From the sequence record NC_054929.1: a stretch of DNA of 64,000 nt; one strand, given 5' to 3'. A model generated the notes under the pieces. The model was not told the origin of the DNA. It saw nothing but the letters and a program-made list of their open reading frames with translations, and searched no databases. The first letter of the stretch is position 1. Every line of letters begins with the position of its first letter. Origin of the DNA: Escherichia phage PE37. The translations under genes were made by a program, and so were the position numbers. Positions 47,081-56,202 of the stretch are shown here, piece after piece.

Positions 47081-48049
47081 ATGAAAACTGTAACTATCAA
47101 TAAGGGTATCTACTTCGGTAAAGAAATCTCTGGAACTTTTGAGCTCTTAGGCGAATGGTTCCCAGATAATGCTCCGGTAGATGCACAAGGAGATGGTAAA
47201 GTTTTTGTTGAAATTGACGGTAAGCGTCGCGGTGTTTGGGTTTACAAATCAGACATTTCATATGATGGTGTAAAAGTTGAAGAAGTTAAAGAATCGTATG
47301 AAGATATGAAAACCCGCATTAATAAAAGATTTAATGTTATGGGAATGATGACGAATGGTATTATTAATGGAAATATTCGTTCATTAATTATCTCTGGCGC
47401 AGCAGGTATTGGTAAAACGTATTCTTTAGATAAAGCTTTAAATAAAGCAAATGATATTGGATACATTGAATATAAAAGCATTAATGGTAAAATCTCTGGT
47501 ATTGGTCTTTATGAGCAGCTTTGGAATAATCGTGAAGAGAATTCTGTCCTTTTGATTGATGATGTGGATGTTTTCTCTGATATGGACATTCTTAATCTTC
47601 TGAAAGCTGCTCTGGACACTGGAGAGACCCGTAAAGTCTGCTGGAGCACCGCATCTTCTTACTTAGAAGAAAAAGGCATTGAGCGTGAGTTTGAATTTAA
47701 AGGAACGATTGTTTTTATCACAAACGTTGACATTGACCGCGAATTAGACCGTGGTACTAAACTTGCTCCACATTTACAAGCATTAGTGTCCCGCTCAGTT
47801 TATTTGGATTTGGGTGTTCACACTAATGAAGAAATTATGGTCAGGGTTGAAGATGTTATTCTTTCAACTGACATGATGCAAAAGCGCGGTCTTTCTGATG
47901 AAGAAACTTATAAAGCATTATCATGGATGAAAGTCAATGTTAATCGTTTACGCAATGTTTCACTGCGTACTGCTCTTTATCTTGCTGACTTTATTATGAC
48001 CGACAAAAACGGTTGGGAAGAAATTGCTACGGTTACTCTTCTGAAATAA
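47081..48049 (+). CDS. AAA+ ATPase
   Basis: Walker A GAAGIGKT, Walker B VLLIDDVD; start at MKTVTINKG after GGAGAATAAA RBS. Confidence 0.7.
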   Translation: MKTVTINKGIYFGKEISGTFELLGEWFPDNAPVDAQGDGKVFVEIDGKRRGVWVYKSDISYDGVKVEEVKESYEDMKTRINKRFNVMGMMTNGIINGNIRSLIISGAAGIGKTYSLDKALNKANDIGYIEYKSINGKISGIGLYEQLWNNREENSVLLIDDVDVFSDMDILNLLKAALDTGETRKVCWSTASSYLEEKGIEREFEFKGTIVFITNVDIDRELDRGTKLAPHLQALVSRSVYLDLGVHTNEEIMVRVEDVILSTDMMQKRGLSDEETYKALSWMKVNVNRLRNVSLRTALYLADFIMTDKNGWEEIATVTLLK

Positions 48050-48514: not shown

Positions 48515-49042
48515 ATGAACGCTAAAGATATTTTCAACTTGGTAAACTACAATGATGGTAAATTTAAATCTGAAGCACAAAGTAAGTTCTTTAATGACAT
48601 CTCAATCGGAGGTGAAATCACTGTTGATGGAGGACAAATTTACAAATCCCGTTGGAATTGGATCGTTATTATTGATGAGATTGGTATTGTAGAAATTTAC
48701 AAAAATACGAATAAAAATCGTACATTACACTGGTCTCGTGATACTAACGAACAGTACAAAAAGGATAAAGCATCTAAGTTATCTCGTGTAACTCAAGAAG
48801 ATATTGAGTTCATCAAGAAAGATATTTTGATGTATGATAACTTAATTGCTGAAGAGCAAGCTGTTATTGATAAATTTGATGAGATTAAAGCTTCTCATAA
48901 AATTCCTGATTTTATGAAAGAATCAGTAAATGAACGATACACTCTCATTTCAGAGCGTATTGAAACTTACAAAAAGCAAAGAGCTGAACGCCAGAATACT
49001 CTTCGGAAGTTTGAAGAACGGTTAAAGACGGTACTTGCATAA
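48515..49042 (+). CDS. hypothetical protein
   Basis: Start at MNAKDIF after GGAGGAACAGAAA RBS; 175 aa. Confidence 0.55.
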   Translation: MNAKDIFNLVNYNDGKFKSEAQSKFFNDISIGGEITVDGGQIYKSRWNWIVIIDEIGIVEIYKNTNKNRTLHWSRDTNEQYKKDKASKLSRVTQEDIEFIKKDILMYDNLIAEEQAVIDKFDEIKASHKIPDFMKESVNERYTLISERIETYKKQRAERQNTLRKFEERLKTVLA

Positions 49043-49043
49043 C

Positions 49044-49068
49044 CGCTTTATACCAAGGATGGTATAAT
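49044..49068 (+). promoter_or_regulatory. middle (MotA-box-like) or early promoter candidate
   Basis: cGCTTTA-12 nt-TATAAT. Confidence 0.4.
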
Positions 49069-49097: not shown

Positions 49098-49505
49098 ATG
49101 AAACAGCTGATAATTAAAAGATTGAATTTATTGATATGTTGTTTATGTATAGTAATTGCATATGGTTATTACGCAATTAATGATTATATGCATTATAAAG
49201 ATTATGATGTTACTGTAGTTAATACCCTTACAGGAACTCAAGGAAAGGGGTCTAGTTTATCGTTTATTGCCGTATATGAACTCAAAGACGGTTATAGATT
49301 TAGCGAATATATTTCCCCAGAGATGTATTCATCAATAGAAAAAGGCGATAATATTACTGTAAGTTTACGTCCTTTCGACGTAAAACAGACATTGTTTGAT
49401 AATATTGTTTGGTTCTTTGGAATGGTATTAGTTCAATCTGTATGCGGTGCTTATATAGTCTTTTCCATCATATTCTGCGTATTTAGTAAAATTGAAATTG
49501 AGTGA
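49098..49505 (+). CDS. membrane protein (2 TM)
   Basis: 135 aa, N- and C-terminal hydrophobic helices. Confidence 0.55.
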   Translation: MKQLIIKRLNLLICCLCIVIAYGYYAINDYMHYKDYDVTVVNTLTGTQGKGSSLSFIAVYELKDGYRFSEYISPEMYSSIEKGDNITVSLRPFDVKQTLFDNIVWFFGMVLVQSVCGAYIVFSIIFCVFSKIEIE

Positions 49506-49512
49506 GGAAAAT

Positions 49513-50400
49513 ATGTCAGTAGTAATTAATAATGTCAATGCAGTAATTAAATCTTTAGTTAATAAAAAATTGAATGAATGGACTGTACTTCGTCGTGGAG
49601 AGCCAGATAAATTTTTTCATAGATTTAACCCAACTTTGGATTTGAATGTTATTGACAGAGATGTTCATGCAGAAATTTTAGATAAGTTTAAAGTTGATAT
49701 TGGATTTGGATTAGAAAAACATTTACAGCGAACAAACGGGTCTGGAATGGGTTTATCTAATCGCATCATGAAAGCCCTTAATAAAATTGGAGCATTGTCT
49801 CGTATTAACGCGAGTGAAATCCTTCGTAATTATAATAAAGGATATGACCTTTATGGCCGACTAATGCCGAAATTGTCATTCGATCAAATGATTGCGGATT
49901 TGTGGGAAAATCAACGACGATTATTAGCATTAGGCGCTAGATTAGCTAAAGGTCTAGATAAACAAATGATTTTTAAAACTAATAATACAGAAGACCTTAA
50001 ATGCTTTAAATTTAGTACTCGTGGAGATGACTATTACATCAGAGCTCACTCTACAGATTATGTCAATATGGGGCATCATCTCTGTTTAGCTTTTGAAGTT
50101 TTAAAAGAAGCCGGAACATTAGAATATTCATCTGGGGCAAAATGCCCGATTGGTTCAAATTGTATTTTAATTTATCGCCCGAATGAATCCAGTTCAACTA
50201 AATTGCCTACAAAACCTGTACCAGTTCGTAATAATGAAAAACATTCTGAGCAAATTGATTATTTTAATAAGCAAATTGAAGAGCTGAATATTTCTATTCA
50301 ACAATATGATGATGAAATTTTCAGACTATCTGGACTGAGTAGTAAAGCTAAATCTGAGCGTGAAAAGTTAATTAAAATTGTTGATTTACTTAAATCTTAA
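49513..50400 (+). CDS. coiled-coil-tailed protein, array member A
   Basis: Start at MSVVINNVN after GAGGAAAA RBS; about 250-aa N-domain + C-terminal heptad-repeat helix. Confidence 0.6.
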   Translation: MSVVINNVNAVIKSLVNKKLNEWTVLRRGEPDKFFHRFNPTLDLNVIDRDVHAEILDKFKVDIGFGLEKHLQRTNGSGMGLSNRIMKALNKIGALSRINASEILRNYNKGYDLYGRLMPKLSFDQMIADLWENQRRLLALGARLAKGLDKQMIFKTNNTEDLKCFKFSTRGDDYYIRAHSTDYVNMGHHLCLAFEVLKEAGTLEYSSGAKCPIGSNCILIYRPNESSSTKLPTKPVPVRNNEKHSEQIDYFNKQIEELNISIQQYDDEIFRLSGLSSKAKSEREKLIKIVDLLKS

Positions 50401-50408
50401 GGAACACC

Positions 50409-51428
50409 ATGAAAACTCGTTCTCAAATTGAAGATATGGTTCGTAATGCCAGCTATACTCGTGATGTTATGACATTTTTGTGCCAAAATAATTTAGACCC
50501 TGATAAAGTTAATCGTGATATTCACTTTAAATATATGAATAGCAGTGAATGGTTACGTCATTTTAGTAAAGCGGGATATATTACACAAATGACTGCTCGT
50601 GAGCAGCTCACCGATTTCTGTAAAACTATTGATTATAAAAATCCTCTATTTGTTCAAGGCGTTGGTCAAAGTAAGGTCGATTTATCATCTGGATTTTTCA
50701 ATCCAAATCATTATCGTATTGAATGGAGATTTATTGCTCTGTTCCGTAGACAATTAAAGCAAATTTTGTCTACTGCTAGTCGATTAAAAGGCTCTGATAT
50801 TAACTTAAAGAATCTGAAATTTGATGGTTATACTCTTCAGATGGAAGTAAGACCGTTAAAAGAAAATAATAGAACTGCACGAATTAGCTTTAAACCTAAT
50901 ACAAAAAATTCTCTTTCAATTTGTGAATGCCTTAAATCACAGTTGACAGAAGCATTTAAGTATATGGATGTTGTTGCTGCTGTTCAATCTAAGATTTTAC
51001 CTCGTTTTGAACGATTTAAGTTAGATACAACATCATATGAACTTGATATGATCGTTTCATTTAAATACGATTTTTTGAGAAAGGACGAAGTCCCGCAAGA
51101 GAAAAAGCAAGAAGTGCAAGATAACTTAAATTTATCTAATTACTCATCAAACGATCCTAAATTTTGGATGTATAGTTCAGGCAATAAAGATGCATGGAAA
51201 TTCAATAAAGTGAATTTTCTTCCTATTGAAAATCCGAGTCTTAAACCTGTTGAAAAATGGCACGCGGATGCGATTGGGAAGTCTATCAAGGCAGTAGATG
51301 ATGAACTCGTTAAAGCAACTAATGAAGTGTTAGAAGCTGAAAAGATGCTAGAAAAAGCTCAAGAAAAAGTCAAAAATCTCACGAAGCAACGTTCTAAACT
51401 GAACAATGCACTAAATGCACTGAACTAG
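50409..51428 (+). CDS. coiled-coil-tailed protein, array member B
   Basis: 339 aa, MKTRSQIEDMV..., C-terminal coiled coil. Confidence 0.6.
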   Translation: MKTRSQIEDMVRNASYTRDVMTFLCQNNLDPDKVNRDIHFKYMNSSEWLRHFSKAGYITQMTAREQLTDFCKTIDYKNPLFVQGVGQSKVDLSSGFFNPNHYRIEWRFIALFRRQLKQILSTASRLKGSDINLKNLKFDGYTLQMEVRPLKENNRTARISFKPNTKNSLSICECLKSQLTEAFKYMDVVAAVQSKILPRFERFKLDTTSYELDMIVSFKYDFLRKDEVPQEKKQEVQDNLNLSNYSSNDPKFWMYSSGNKDAWKFNKVNFLPIENPSLKPVEKWHADAIGKSIKAVDDELVKATNEVLEAEKMLEKAQEKVKNLTKQRSKLNNALNALN

Positions 51429-51457
51429 TTTACTTTGCCACAAGGATGTGGTATAAT
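51428..51457 (+). promoter_or_regulatory. early promoter
   Basis: GTTTAC-18-TATAAT, palindrome CACA/TGTG in spacer. Confidence 0.55.
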
Positions 51458-51485
51458 GTTCTTACTTTCTACTGAGGAGATTAAT

Positions 51486-52487
51486 ATGACTCGTAACGAA
51501 TATATCAAATCATTCAATAGCGTTATTGATGATAAAGCTATACCGATGTTTGGCCAAAATAGCGTTCTTTCTATTATCAATCAATGGCTCAATAGTGTTG
51601 ATGCAGGTATTGTTTCTTCTGCTAAATTTATTCATGAAATTCGTAAAATTTCTAGCCGTGTAGATAAAGATAATATCAAGAAAACCTTTAAAGAGTCTCG
51701 TCTTCTTTCATATTTGGTTAATCGGGATATTCTTGGTAATTTTGGGAAAGAAATTAAACGAACCAAAGATGTAGTAGGATATAATTGGTTCGGTGATGTT
51801 AATTCTTATCATCTTAATAATAAAGAAGACCCTGAGAATATTTTTACTCGTCGTTGGATTAGTAATTTCAGACTTTTTAAAGGACAAATTCTAAAATCAG
51901 CTTCTAAATTATGTTATGGCGATTATCGTCAAATTCATCCTTTGGCTTCTGATATGATTATCGTAAAAGAATATGAGCTTGATGAAAATAAAGTAGCTAT
52001 TTTTGTGAATTATGGATTTTTTACACCAAACGCTAATCAAAAGAATATTAATAAATTTTTCTCAATTGCTAGTGATATAACTCGACAATTAGAGACTGCA
52101 CTACTTTGTATGGAAACAGTAGAAAATATTCATACATATCCTTTTAAGAATATATGCGGATGGGAAGGATATAAAATTGTAATTAGTCTTCGTGAAGTGA
52201 AATGTGCTTATTCACCTACTGATAAAGAAATTTACCAACAAAAATGTGATGAAATTGTGAATACTCCTAAAGAAGAAACTACCCTTGAGGAACTAATGGA
52301 TAATCTTGATGATTCACCTGAACCGGTAGAAATTCGTCCAGAAGTTATTGCATTAGAAAAAGCTTATAAAGAAGTTCTAGAAATTTCTAATAAAGCGCAG
52401 AAAGAATATGAGCAGGCTAAAAAGATTTGGGAAGAATCCGTTAATCGTCTTGATCGTCTTGAACAAGCTTTAAAGTTAATTAAGTAA
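51486..52487 (+). CDS. coiled-coil-tailed protein, array member C
   Basis: Start at MTRNEYIKSF after GAGGAGATTAAT RBS; C-terminal coiled coil. Confidence 0.6.
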   Translation: MTRNEYIKSFNSVIDDKAIPMFGQNSVLSIINQWLNSVDAGIVSSAKFIHEIRKISSRVDKDNIKKTFKESRLLSYLVNRDILGNFGKEIKRTKDVVGYNWFGDVNSYHLNNKEDPENIFTRRWISNFRLFKGQILKSASKLCYGDYRQIHPLASDMIIVKEYELDENKVAIFVNYGFFTPNANQKNINKFFSIASDITRQLETALLCMETVENIHTYPFKNICGWEGYKIVISLREVKCAYSPTDKEIYQQKCDEIVNTPKEETTLEELMDNLDDSPEPVEIRPEVIALEKAYKEVLEISNKAQKEYEQAKKIWEESVNRLDRLEQALKLIK

Positions 52488-52539
52488 TTTAAAGCCAAGG
52501 ATGGCTCGGAGTATAAATCATTAACCAAGTGAGAAGAAC

Positions 52540-53466
52540 ATGAAAACTCGTAAACATTATATTGATTATTTTGACAGTCTTATTACTAAACACCGTAATT
52601 ATCAAATCGGACACAGAGCAGTAATCAATAATATTCTTCGTGATTTTTTAGACTATATTGGTTGGGAAAACCATATTTGTAAAGATACACAAAATGCGTA
52701 TTCACATTCTCTTGGTTCTTTGCTCGAGTGGTTCAAGCGTTCCCGATTACTATCTTCTGTGATAGCTGTTAATAATGTTAAAAAATTTATGTATCCAATC
52801 TACATTAAGACTAATGTATCAAATGCTAGTGTTGTTACATTTAATATTATTAACGACGTGAAAAGAACTTATTTAGAAGAATGGTTTTCTAAAGATAGTA
52901 AAGAAAAATTTGCTAGTGAATTTTCACACGAATTCAATAATAACGTAAATATGCTTTTTAAGCATTCTCGTAGACTGTTTTGTCATGGTGATAACCGTAC
53001 TATTAATGTGAATGTAAAAGACTGGGTTACGGCTAAATTTATTCCATCGTCCCAGAATGGACAATTTGAATTGTCAATTATCGTTTGCGCTCCGCATGAG
53101 ATATATAAAAATCTTCCGTATATGAAACCACGCGAAGCTAATAAACACAATGAAACTATTAGTTCTTTGGCTTATAATTTGCGCGTGTTATTATCTGATA
53201 TGGATGTAGTCAAATCCTTTGATGATAATACGAATTATGGTCTTTCACTGTTTGAAACTAAATTTGTTATTAAATTAAAGGACCCTAGTGAATTTAAACC
53301 TATACCAAAATCCAATCATGGAAATGATACTATGAAAGAAGAACGTGAATATCTCAATGTCCGTTTGACTGAAGTTGAAAAACAAATTGAAGAGCATACT
53401 AAAGTTCTTAAGGCTTTAACCGCCAAAGCAAATGGTTTACGTAATGCTATTGAGGTATTGAAATGA
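52540..53466 (+). CDS. coiled-coil-tailed protein, array member D
   Basis: 308 aa, MKTRKHYIDYF..., C-terminal coiled coil. Confidence 0.6.
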   Translation: MKTRKHYIDYFDSLITKHRNYQIGHRAVINNILRDFLDYIGWENHICKDTQNAYSHSLGSLLEWFKRSRLLSSVIAVNNVKKFMYPIYIKTNVSNASVVTFNIINDVKRTYLEEWFSKDSKEKFASEFSHEFNNNVNMLFKHSRRLFCHGDNRTINVNVKDWVTAKFIPSSQNGQFELSIIVCAPHEIYKNLPYMKPREANKHNETISSLAYNLRVLLSDMDVVKSFDDNTNYGLSLFETKFVIKLKDPSEFKPIPKSNHGNDTMKEEREYLNVRLTEVEKQIEEHTKVLKALTAKANGLRNAIEVLK

Positions 53467-53852
53467 AAAAGCGTTTATTAGAAGACATTGCAGCTTCAAG
53501 TAATTCCAGTTTAATTAAAATTATTATGGCTGGTGAGGAAGATGATATGGAAATGCGTGGAAAGATTCACGGCTGCGACGATTTAGATTTTAAACCTCCA
53601 GCATGGGATGCTATTATGGCTATGGTTGAACGACGTGAAAGAGCTTCTAAAAACGTTCCTAATTGCCCTGAATGCGATACTGAACAAGTTCAATTGATTA
53701 ACTGGCGTAAACCAGAGCTTGAATATAAATGCCGTCAATGTAAACATAAATTCAGTAAGCATGCTCCGGAAATGGTTAAATTGCCTGACTCTACTGAGTT
53801 CTTTAAAGAACTTGTGAGTGTTCAACCAATGCCTAATAATATTTTGGATTAA
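53463..53852 (+). CDS. zinc-ribbon protein
   Basis: CPEC-x18-CRQC, 129 aa. Confidence 0.5.
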
Positions 53853-53854
53853 AA

Positions 53855-54097
53855 ATGACCAAGCGTAAAGAATATATGGAGGCTGCTGAAAAGGCAGTCC
53901 GTGAATTAGCAATAGCTTATTATAATGAACATGGTAAATTTCCTGATAGATACAGCGTGCTTAAATCTGCTTTAACTCGTTCATATAAAAATATGCTATC
54001 AGAAGTAAGTGATATTATATACAAACATAAAGAACAAACGGGCCAAAGTCTTGATTACGACGAGACTTTTAAACAAGTACTAGGAATTAAGGAATAA
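53855..54097 (+). CDS. hypothetical protein
   Basis: 80 aa ORF. Confidence 0.5.
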
Positions 54098-54098
54098 T

Positions 54099-54362
54099 AT
54101 GTTTAAAGTATATGGTTATGATAGCAACATTCACAAATGTGTGTATTGCGATAATGCAAAACGTCTTTTGACCGTGAAGAAACAGCCGTTTGAATTTATC
54201 AACATTATGCCGGAAAAAGGTGTTTTTGATGATGAGAAAATCGCTGAGCTTCTGACTAAACTAGGTCGTGATACTCAAATCGGCTTGACAATGCCCCAGG
54301 TATTTGCTCCTGATGGAAGTCATATTGGTGGATTTGACCAACTGCGAGAATATTTTAAATGA
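54099..54362 (+). CDS. nrdC: glutaredoxin/thioredoxin NrdC
   Basis: 87 aa, CVYC active site, MFKVYGYDSNIHKCVYCDNAKRLL matches T4 from memory. Confidence 0.95.
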   Translation: MFKVYGYDSNIHKCVYCDNAKRLLTVKKQPFEFINIMPEKGVFDDEKIAELLTKLGRDTQIGLTMPQVFAPDGSHIGGFDQLREYFK

Positions 54363-55728: not shown

Positions 55729-56202
55729 ATGTTATTGACTGGCAAATTATATAAAGAAGAAAAACAGAAATTTTATGATGCACAAAATGGTAAATGTTTA
55801 ATTTGCCAACGAGAACTAAATCCTGACGTTCAAGCTAATCATCTTGATCATGACCATGAATTAAATGGACCAAAAGCAGGAAAAGTACGTGGATTGCTCT
55901 GTAATCTCTGCAATGCCGCGGAAGGTCAAATGAAGCATAAATTTAATCGTTCTGGCTTAAAGGGACAAGGCGTTGATTATCTTGAATGGTTAGAAAATTT
56001 ACTTACTTATTTAAAATCCGATTACACCCAAAATAATATTCATCCTAACTTTGTTGGAGATAAATCAAAGGAATTTTCTCGTTTAGGAAAAGAGGAAATG
56101 ATGGCTGAGATGCTTCAAAGAGGATTTGAATATAATGAATCTGACACTAAAACACAATTAATAGCTTCATTTAAGAAGCAGCTTAGAAAGAGTTTAAAAT
56201 GA
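55729..56202 (+). CDS. 49: endonuclease VII (Holliday junction resolvase) gp49
   Basis: 157 aa, zinc motif CLICQ...CNLCN, matches T4 gp49 from memory. Confidence 0.95.
   Translation: MLLTGKLYKEEKQKFYDAQNGKCLICQRELNPDVQANHLDHDHELNGPKAGKVRGLLCNLCNAAEGQMKHKFNRSGLKGQGVDYLEWLENLLTYLKSDYTQNNIHPNFVGDKSKEFSRLGKEEMMAEMLQRGFEYNESDTKTQLIASFKKQLRKSLK

Follow-up and report, generated by a model that had tools for sequence, protein, structure and literature searches.

Bacteriophage T4 is the best-studied lytic phage, and most of its early accessory genes are without known function. Analysis of a 64,000-nucleotide (nt) stretch of Escherichia phage PE37 (NC_054929.1; the whole stretch is hereafter called the window) revealed that four consecutive open reading frames (ORFs) at positions 49513-53466 correspond to the T4 genes nrdC.6, nrdC.5, nrdC.4, and nrdC.3. 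Comparisons of the predicted proteins give good support to the view that these are fast-evolving paralogs of one ancestral gene. We propose, with moderate confidence, that the array consists of four paralogs of a Straboviridae-only family whose products would act as non-enzymatic early binders, each neutralising one host immune protein.

Megablast analysis showed that a 5.4-kb stretch around the array shares 96-97% identity with many T4-like coliphages. The 97% identity to T4-like phages, together with the annotation of RB51 and T4, assigned the window to the genus Tequatrovirus and the ORFs to nrdC.6 (49513-50400, 295 amino acids [aa]), nrdC.5 (50409-51428, 339 aa), nrdC.4 (51486-52487, 333 aa), and nrdC.3 (52540-53466, 308 aa). 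All four lie on the plus strand with a Shine-Dalgarno-like sequence 5-9 nt 5' of the ATG, as expected from an earlier reading of the window made from its letters alone (the initial annotation), which had listed four consecutive same-strand ORFs of these lengths. They are known T4 early genes that carry no functional annotation, although a role for nrdC.5 has been published. NrdC.6 matched phrog_2257 (E = 2.8e-152), and its close homologues carry Pfam PF26899. NrdC.4 (E = 5.5e-169, aa 1-333 of 334 model positions) and NrdC.3 (E = 1.9e-98, aa 2-308) both matched phrog_1435, so that PHROGs already unites these two in one family. NrdC.5 matched Pfam DUF7235 (PF23882) with 412.5 bits over model positions 1-307 of 307, where the gathering threshold is 30 bits. 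The other proteins did not reach this threshold: NrdC.3 scored 14.3 bits over its C-terminal helix only, and NrdC.4 and NrdC.6 gave no match. NrdC.3, NrdC.4, and NrdC.6 are superfamily-level relatives of NrdC.5 outside Pfam DUF7235.

Pairwise BLASTP among the four proteins returned a single marginal match, between NrdC.4 and NrdC.3 (E = 1e-3). For profile comparison, homologues of nrdC.5, nrdC.4, and nrdC.6 were taken from a large protein collection, and annotated phages and viral contigs supplied the nrdC.3 orthologs together with distant relatives; the IMG/VR scans contributed few loci (5 and 9). The nrdC.5 alignment included distant relatives and excluded P0056, a natural nrdC.5/nrdC.3 fusion. 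The nrdC.5-nrdC.3 signals obtained with P0056 included were discarded as spurious, the hmmsearch matches being non-colinear. The hhalign comparison of nrdC.4 with nrdC.3 gave a probability of 98.2% (E = 3.6e-14, 252 columns; about 98.2-98.4% and E = 5e-15 to 4e-14 across alignments), and nrdC.5 matched nrdC.4 at 95.4% (E = 1.9e-8, 185 columns) and the merged nrdC.4 and nrdC.3 profile at 96.1% (E = 3.1e-9, 184 columns). The nrdC.6 profile matched this merged profile at 51% (E = 1.5e-4, 95 columns) and a redundancy-filtered merged profile of nrdC.5, nrdC.4, and nrdC.3 at 95% (E = 1.7e-8, 110 columns). In the latter comparison NrdC.6 aa 40-152 aligned with NrdC.4 aa 20-150. The alignment registers were concordant, with NrdC.6 aa 86 corresponding to NrdC.5 aa 49 and NrdC.4 aa 65. 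Families of 13 neighbouring genes, from nrdC.11 to gp49, served as controls, and all scored below 5% against the same profiles and at or below 1% against the merged profile. The nrdC.8 product, considered as a fifth member because it ends in a charged amphipathic helix (…ERIETYKKQRAERQNTLRKFEERLKTVLA), likewise scored below 5% and was rejected.

The profile comparisons indicate that all four proteins are homologous, with NrdC.6 the most divergent, and nrdC.3 is the closest paralog of nrdC.4. The resemblance of the N-domains, described in the initial annotation as weak patterns, is therefore better regarded as statistically solid homology, and its picture of diverged paralogs with one architecture was upheld by profile-profile comparison, PHROG membership, and structure search alike. 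Although each ORF has its own counterpart among the T4 nrdC.x genes, the N-domains are detectably homologous, and only one of the four genes has an established function.

Two helix motifs were common to all four proteins in the hhalign alignments, in identical order and 44-70 aa apart. Motif 1, approximately K.F..SR.LS....A..IL.NF.K, was encoded on the plus strand at 49768-49842 in nrdC.6 (aa 86-110, MKALNKIGALSRINASEILRNYNKG), 50553-50627 in nrdC.5, 51678-51752 in nrdC.4, and 52723-52797 in nrdC.3. Motif 2, approximately F.....IL..ASRL..GD, followed on the same strand at 49900-49968 (aa 130-152, LWENQRRLLALGARLAKGLDKQM), 50742-50810, 51867-51935, and 52933-53001, respectively. An N-terminal start of the form M(K)TR..(Y)I..F was present in three of the four proteins, NrdC.6 being without it. 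Positions T2, R3, Y6, I7, and F10 of this start were invariant in the nrdC.4/nrdC.3 alignment, and M1, T3, and R4 were invariant among nrdC.5 relatives of 22-41% identity; the related N-termini noted earlier in three of the proteins thus reflect residues conserved across the nrdC.4/nrdC.3 alignment and a TR core retained in nrdC.5 relatives.

All four proteins end in a heptad-patterned helix of 40-60 aa, as the initial annotation had held. The best heptad-patterned 42-aa segment was the extreme C-terminus in every case, starting at aa 245 of 295 in NrdC.6, 286 of 339 in NrdC.5, 289 of 333 in NrdC.4, and 263 of 308 in NrdC.3. When each protein was subjected to 300 composition-preserving shuffles, the observed heptad score was reached by none for NrdC.6 and NrdC.5, by 7 for NrdC.4, and by 1 for NrdC.3. 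The helices are encoded on the plus strand at 50266-50397 (NrdC.6, aa 252-295), 51249-51425 (NrdC.5, aa 281-339), 52341-52484 (NrdC.4, aa 286-333), and 53338-53463 (NrdC.3, aa 267-308). AlphaFold2 predicted a single unbroken 48-residue helix at 285-332 of NrdC.4 and a 59-residue helix at 280-338 of NrdC.5, the latter with a predicted local distance difference test score (pLDDT) of 72-94 over 291-339 and hydrophobic residues at 13 of 14 a/d positions. All four tails finish in a similar pattern, (R/K)xxLxx(A/I)(L/V)xxL(K/N). Within each family the helix was the best-conserved segment: among distant orthologs, identity in the helix and in the rest of the protein was 64 vs. 37% for NrdC.6, 32 vs. 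20% for NrdC.5, 59 vs. 43% for NrdC.4, and 81 vs. 54% for NrdC.3. This conservation bears indirectly on the oligomerisation or docking through the coiled coil that the initial annotation suggested. Between paralogs, hhalign detected no significant similarity of the helices (E = 0.07-0.4).

The AlphaFold2 model of NrdC.4 (mean pLDDT 82.9, predicted template modelling score 0.67) places a six-helix N-domain at residues 1-84 and an alpha/beta core at 88-235, followed by a short helix, a predicted disordered, acidic, and proline-rich linker at approximately 259-284, and the terminal helix. Foldseek comparison of this model with BFVD returned full-length matches (E = 4e-8 to 5e-4) to proteins of 280-374 aa that are uncharacterised and come from T4-like phages of Enterobacter, Pectobacterium, Acinetobacter, Klebsiella, Erwinia, Serratia, and Yersinia; proteins of Aeromonas phages gave weak matches only (E about 0.01). 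The same model matched a NrdC.3-type protein (E = 6e-8) and NrdC.6 of phage JS10 (E = 4.8e-5). Against the PDB, Foldseek returned nothing below E = 0.02 for the NrdC.4 model, and comparison of the nrdC.5, nrdC.6, and nrdC.4/nrdC.3 profiles with the full set of PDB chains (E up to 1) yielded chance-level matches only. Over the region aligned by hhalign, the predicted order of helices and strands in NrdC.5 matches that of NrdC.4.

Relatives of the array occur at the same position in distant T4-like phages. In Acinetobacter phage Acj61, nrdC.10 and nrdC enclose two adjacent genes that are both BFVD matches, and one Klebsiella Jiaodavirus has a gene in this place that matches the nrdC.4/nrdC.3 profile at 92.6%, which indicates that the family is Straboviridae-wide and positionally conserved. 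The nrdC.5 family itself is extremely narrow: an exhaustive hidden Markov model search with its profile retrieved 13 proteins among 1.84 billion representatives and did not reach the paralogs. Copy number is three or four depending on the genus, with all four genes in Tequatrovirus, nrdC.4 lacking in Mosigvirus, and nrdC.3 lacking in Dhakavirus-type phages. Several hundred Tequatrovirus genomes retain each of the four at full length.

When Tequatrovirus is compared with Mosigvirus or Dhakavirus, identity is 25-56% for the array genes and 67-92% for the flanking nrdC.11, nrdC.10, nrdC.8, nrdC, and gene 49. Within Tequatrovirus, the ratio of nonsynonymous to synonymous substitution rates (dN/dS) was 0.13, 0.17, 0.19, and 0.30 for the four array genes, compared with 0.01-0.10 for the same flanking genes; most flanking genes taken together fall within 0.01-0.11. 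The array values are well below 1 and give no sign of gene-wide positive selection. The rapid diversification ascribed to these genes in the initial annotation therefore holds relative to their neighbours, in both identity and dN/dS, but does not extend to gene-wide positive selection. In nrdC.3, two allele classes were found within Tequatrovirus, with approximately 138 records more than 90% identical and approximately 220 records about 60% identical to the window protein; the genes flanking nrdC.3 stay above 90% (L010:5501-6430 and L003:8137-9066 compared).

Altered copies were also observed. One Tequatrovirus genome from IMG/VR (L004:7054-8086, on the same contig as L013) has nrdC.4 split into ORFs of 193 and 158 aa, an apparent pseudogene; in phage ACG-C40, nrdC.5 is cut to its first 68 aa, and in phage Pinarejo only the last 47 aa of nrdC.6 are left. 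P0056 joins in frame the middle of nrdC.5 and the second half of the divergent nrdC.3 allele, with the junction at a short shared NxVN-type sequence and nrdC.4 deleted. In P0231 (173 aa) and P0236 (157 aa), all that is left of NrdC.5 is its C-terminal helix, which follows an unrelated N-terminal sequence. These three may be recombinants or assembly chimeras.

Experimental evidence on function comes from T4. After loss of accessory genes, a T4 clone no longer plated on E. coli ECOR17, owing to the sirtuin defence Dsr1, a NADase, and nrdC.5 expressed alone restored plating of the deletion mutant on cells with cloned dsr1 (Srikant, Guegler and Laub, eLife 2022, PMC9391042); the nrdC genes lost in the T4 evo 3 deletion are not named in the main text of that paper. 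The second gene of our array is the ortholog of T4 nrdC.5, and the other three are its paralogs. The window NrdC.5 has the length and position of the T4 protein, and as it is 95% identical to it, anti-Dsr1 activity would be expected. The trigger of E. coli Dsr1 is the major capsid protein of the phage, which acts through a sensor domain common to Avs7 receptors and many other effectors (2026 study, PMC13581612). Neighbouring genes likewise inhibit host defences, nrdC.1 acting on Septu and 49.2 on OLD, which makes the locus rich in counter-defence genes. Since nrdC.5 counters Dsr1 and the remaining genes are its paralogs, nrdC.3, nrdC.4, and nrdC.6 are good candidates for similar jobs. The suggestion that the whole array encodes anti-defence effectors consequently finds experimental support for the nrdC.5 member only, through its T4 ortholog. 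Our literature search turned up no paper about nrdC.3, nrdC.4, or nrdC.6, nor any describing the family relationship.

An enzyme or defence-system identity was considered and rejected for the four proteins, for which no Pfam enzyme domain, PADLOC relative, or PDB relative was found; the earlier statement that no enzymatic motif is recognisable accordingly stands as regards Pfam enzyme domains. Three of the proteins had no PADLOC match, and NrdC.4 had one chance-level match to BrxC, located on its helix (E = 0.0028, 13.7 bits).

Under the reading that we favour, each protein would combine a small helical N-domain, an alpha/beta core with the two shared helix motifs, a flexible linker rich in prolines and charged residues, and a conserved amphipathic C-terminal helix of 40-60 aa. 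The proteins would be stoichiometric binders, made early and thus ahead of the capsid protein that triggers Dsr1. In NrdC.5 the fast-evolving N-terminal and core part would recognise the immune protein, and the slowly evolving C-terminal helix may supply self-association, and with it avidity, or a common docking function; NrdC.3, NrdC.4, and NrdC.6 would target other defence proteins. A bolder version, which we regard as speculative and rather improbable, is that each variable N-terminal and core part fills the target-binding cavity of a different protein-sensing receptor (Dsr1 and others with an Avs7-type capsid sensor), that the helix multimerises this plug to match an oligomeric receptor, and that the fold might derive from a virion-protein-like (tail-terminator-like) one. 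If this were true, one gene family across T4-like phages of many hosts would give viruses a general means of answering the pattern-recognition receptors of bacteria.

Several points weigh against the reading of the array as a set of immune-protein binders. Only one of the four genes has an experimental phenotype, the mechanism of which is unpublished, and direct binding of NrdC.5 to Dsr1 is something that we infer. A T4-wide transposon screen reported nrdC.1 as anti-defence, and the passages of that report that were consulted do not mention nrdC.3-nrdC.6. The dN/dS values below 1 throughout fit relaxed or episodic selection and do not demonstrate an arms race. The AlphaFold2 model of NrdC.5 is poor (pLDDT 41.8; shallow alignment) except for its terminal helix, the only confident part, so the place of NrdC.5 in the fold rests on sequence profiles and the matching order of secondary structure. 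Genuine coiled coils and amphipathic helices packed against a partner cannot be told apart by their heptad pattern. Finally, nrdC.6 of the T4 reference AF158101 (L007:2467-3294) encodes 275 aa, the last approximately 16 of which are altered by a frameshift that removes the C-terminal helix; the full 295-aa form is present in the window and in another T4 record, OZ035787. The frameshift arose either by mutation in a laboratory strain or as an error of early sequencing, so the helix may be dispensable in the laboratory or the record may be in error.

The alternative that survives best, although we consider it unlikely, is that the genes are paralogs of which only nrdC.5 serves counter-defence, the others having other early functions (for example, taking over the host or modulating its proteins) or being near-neutral duplicates in the course of loss. 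Such a division would agree with the lack of a phenotype for nrdC.3, nrdC.4, and nrdC.6 in the literature found, with the split, truncated, or deleted members seen in isolates (nrdC.4 in L004, nrdC.5 in ACG-C40, nrdC.6 in Pinarejo), and with dN/dS values that are raised but still below 1, as under relaxed constraint. Sporadic loss is, however, typical of host-specific accessory genes, and dN/dS of 0.13-0.30 means that purifying selection continues. Retention of all four genes at full length in several hundred Tequatrovirus genomes, and the fixed position of their relatives in distant Straboviridae, also argue against it.

It is distinctly less probable that the four proteins assemble through their similar C-terminal helices into one hetero-oligomer and work as a single machine instead of as independent effectors. 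The shared tail pattern, the status of the helix as the most conserved segment of each family, and the adjacent, co-oriented, and at least partly co-transcribed genes would all suit such an assembly. Nevertheless, the paralog helices are not significantly similar to each other in hhalign, copy number varies by genus as A-B-C-D, A-B-D, or A-B-C, and single members are lost in natural isolates. Moreover, plasmid-borne nrdC.5 alone restores plating on Dsr1 cells, with the qualification that the paralogs left in the mutant phage are not established. We give least credence, and very little, to the idea that the alpha/beta core is descended from a tail-terminator or tail-completion protein of a phage, or mimics one, and serves as an early decoy for virion-protein sensors: small tail-completion-like proteins do appear among the BFVD matches, and bacterial receptors sensing tail terminators and capsid proteins exist (PMC13581612), but RNA polymerase alpha/Rpb11-like, nitroreductase, and H-NOX domains match at equal Z, no PDB entry falls below the Foldseek value given above (gpU only at E = 0.65), and Dsr1, the only target known, responds to the capsid protein and not to a tail terminator.

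The surroundings of the array agree with the context given in the initial annotation. It is preceded by nrdC.7 (49098-49505, assigned by RB51/T4 alignment), which the T4 annotation lists as a predicted membrane protein, and followed by nrdC.2 (53463-53852), a four-cysteine protein with a sub-threshold zinc-ribbon match. Farther out lie nrdC.8 (48515-49042, 175 aa) on one side and nrdC.1 (53855-54097) and nrdC (54099-54362), both assigned by RB51/T4 alignment, and endonuclease VII (55729-56202) on the other. A T4 early-type promoter, predicted from its consensus match (10 of 12 positions, with TG), is located on the plus strand at 51428-51457 in the 57-nt gap between nrdC.5 and nrdC.4 and consists of GTTTACT, a 17-nt spacer, and TGgTATAAT, a TG-extended TATAAT; an early promoter had been noted previously at 51428. 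In many database entries, nrdC.4 begins with the ATG at 51456 and is 343 aa long. Because this ATG falls within the -10 element of the promoter and GAGGAG precedes 51486, the latter is the likelier start (333 aa). Just past the nrdC.8 stop, the sequence at 49044-49067 (CGCTTTA, 11 nt, TATAAT) resembles a T4 middle (MotA-dependent) promoter upstream of nrdC.7, and its GGATG(T)GGTATAAT element is found again in the early promoter at 51428-51457.

In Mosigvirus RB69 (L008:6747-7160), nrdC.7 is placed after nrdC.2, beside nrdC, and not before nrdC.6, and its product is 40% identical to the window protein. The nrdC.10 gene (47084-48049) encodes an AAA+/STAND-like P-loop protein with weak Pfam AAA_14, AAA_22, and nSTAND3 matches; it is far commoner than its neighbours, with 1310 phage records that include Vibrio, Aeromonas, and Acinetobacter phages as well as the jumbo phages PA5oct and Atu_ph07. 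Orthologs of nrdC.3 to nrdC.11 are widely labelled "thioredoxin" or "Thioredoxin, phage-associated" in GenBank and UniRef. We rejected these labels, as none of the proteins has a thioredoxin domain; the name has spilled over from neighbouring nrdC.

Among known systems, the closest functional analogy is DSAD1 of phage SPbeta, a protein that inhibits the sirtuin defence DSR2, a SIR2 NADase triggered by a virion protein. DSAD1 has a different target from NrdC.5, belongs to a different phage lineage, and shows no sequence relationship to it; no DSAD1 chain was retrieved in the PDB-chain searches, in whose set the DSR2-DSAD1 structures were presumably included. Tail terminator and completion proteins (lambda gpU, SPP1 gp17-like, DUF3168) share 4-16% identity with the nrdC proteins, and Foldseek showed nothing significant. 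Compared with them, the nrdC proteins have an additional helical N-domain, a linker, and a long C-terminal helix, and their genes lie in the early nrdC region with a predicted early-type promoter (51428-51457), whereas tail terminators are late virion proteins. The anti-Septu gene nrdC.1 and the anti-OLD gene 49.2 share with the array the early accessory region beside nrdC and are non-essential and each directed against one host defence; their products are small, unrelated, and without a coiled-coil tail, the nrdC.1 family scoring below 5% against the four profiles in hhalign.

The most direct comparison is with T4 NrdC.5. The study of its anti-Dsr1 activity (PMC9391042) treated nrdC.5 as a single uncharacterised gene and gave no mechanism, and the family relationship, the architecture, and the relatives in other genera are absent from it. 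While the genes themselves and one published role were already known, the recognition of all four as one superfamily of modular design that spans T4-like phages is new. The Dsr1 antagonist, the one characterised gene of the block, belongs to a four-copy family with relatives at the same position in Klebsiella and Acinetobacter T4-like phages, and nrdC.3, nrdC.4, and nrdC.6 become specific candidates against Dsr1 variants and related capsid-sensing defences, with a suggested modular design of a variable recognition part and a conserved helix. Current databases hold the proteins in three separate families of unknown function, DUF7235/PF23882 (nrdC.5), PF26897 (nrdC.4), and PF26899 (nrdC.6) in Pfam and families 2351, 1435, and 2257 in PHROGs, and each window protein fits cleanly into one of them. 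Here, profile-profile and structure comparison joined them into one superfamily, which argues for merging the three database families.

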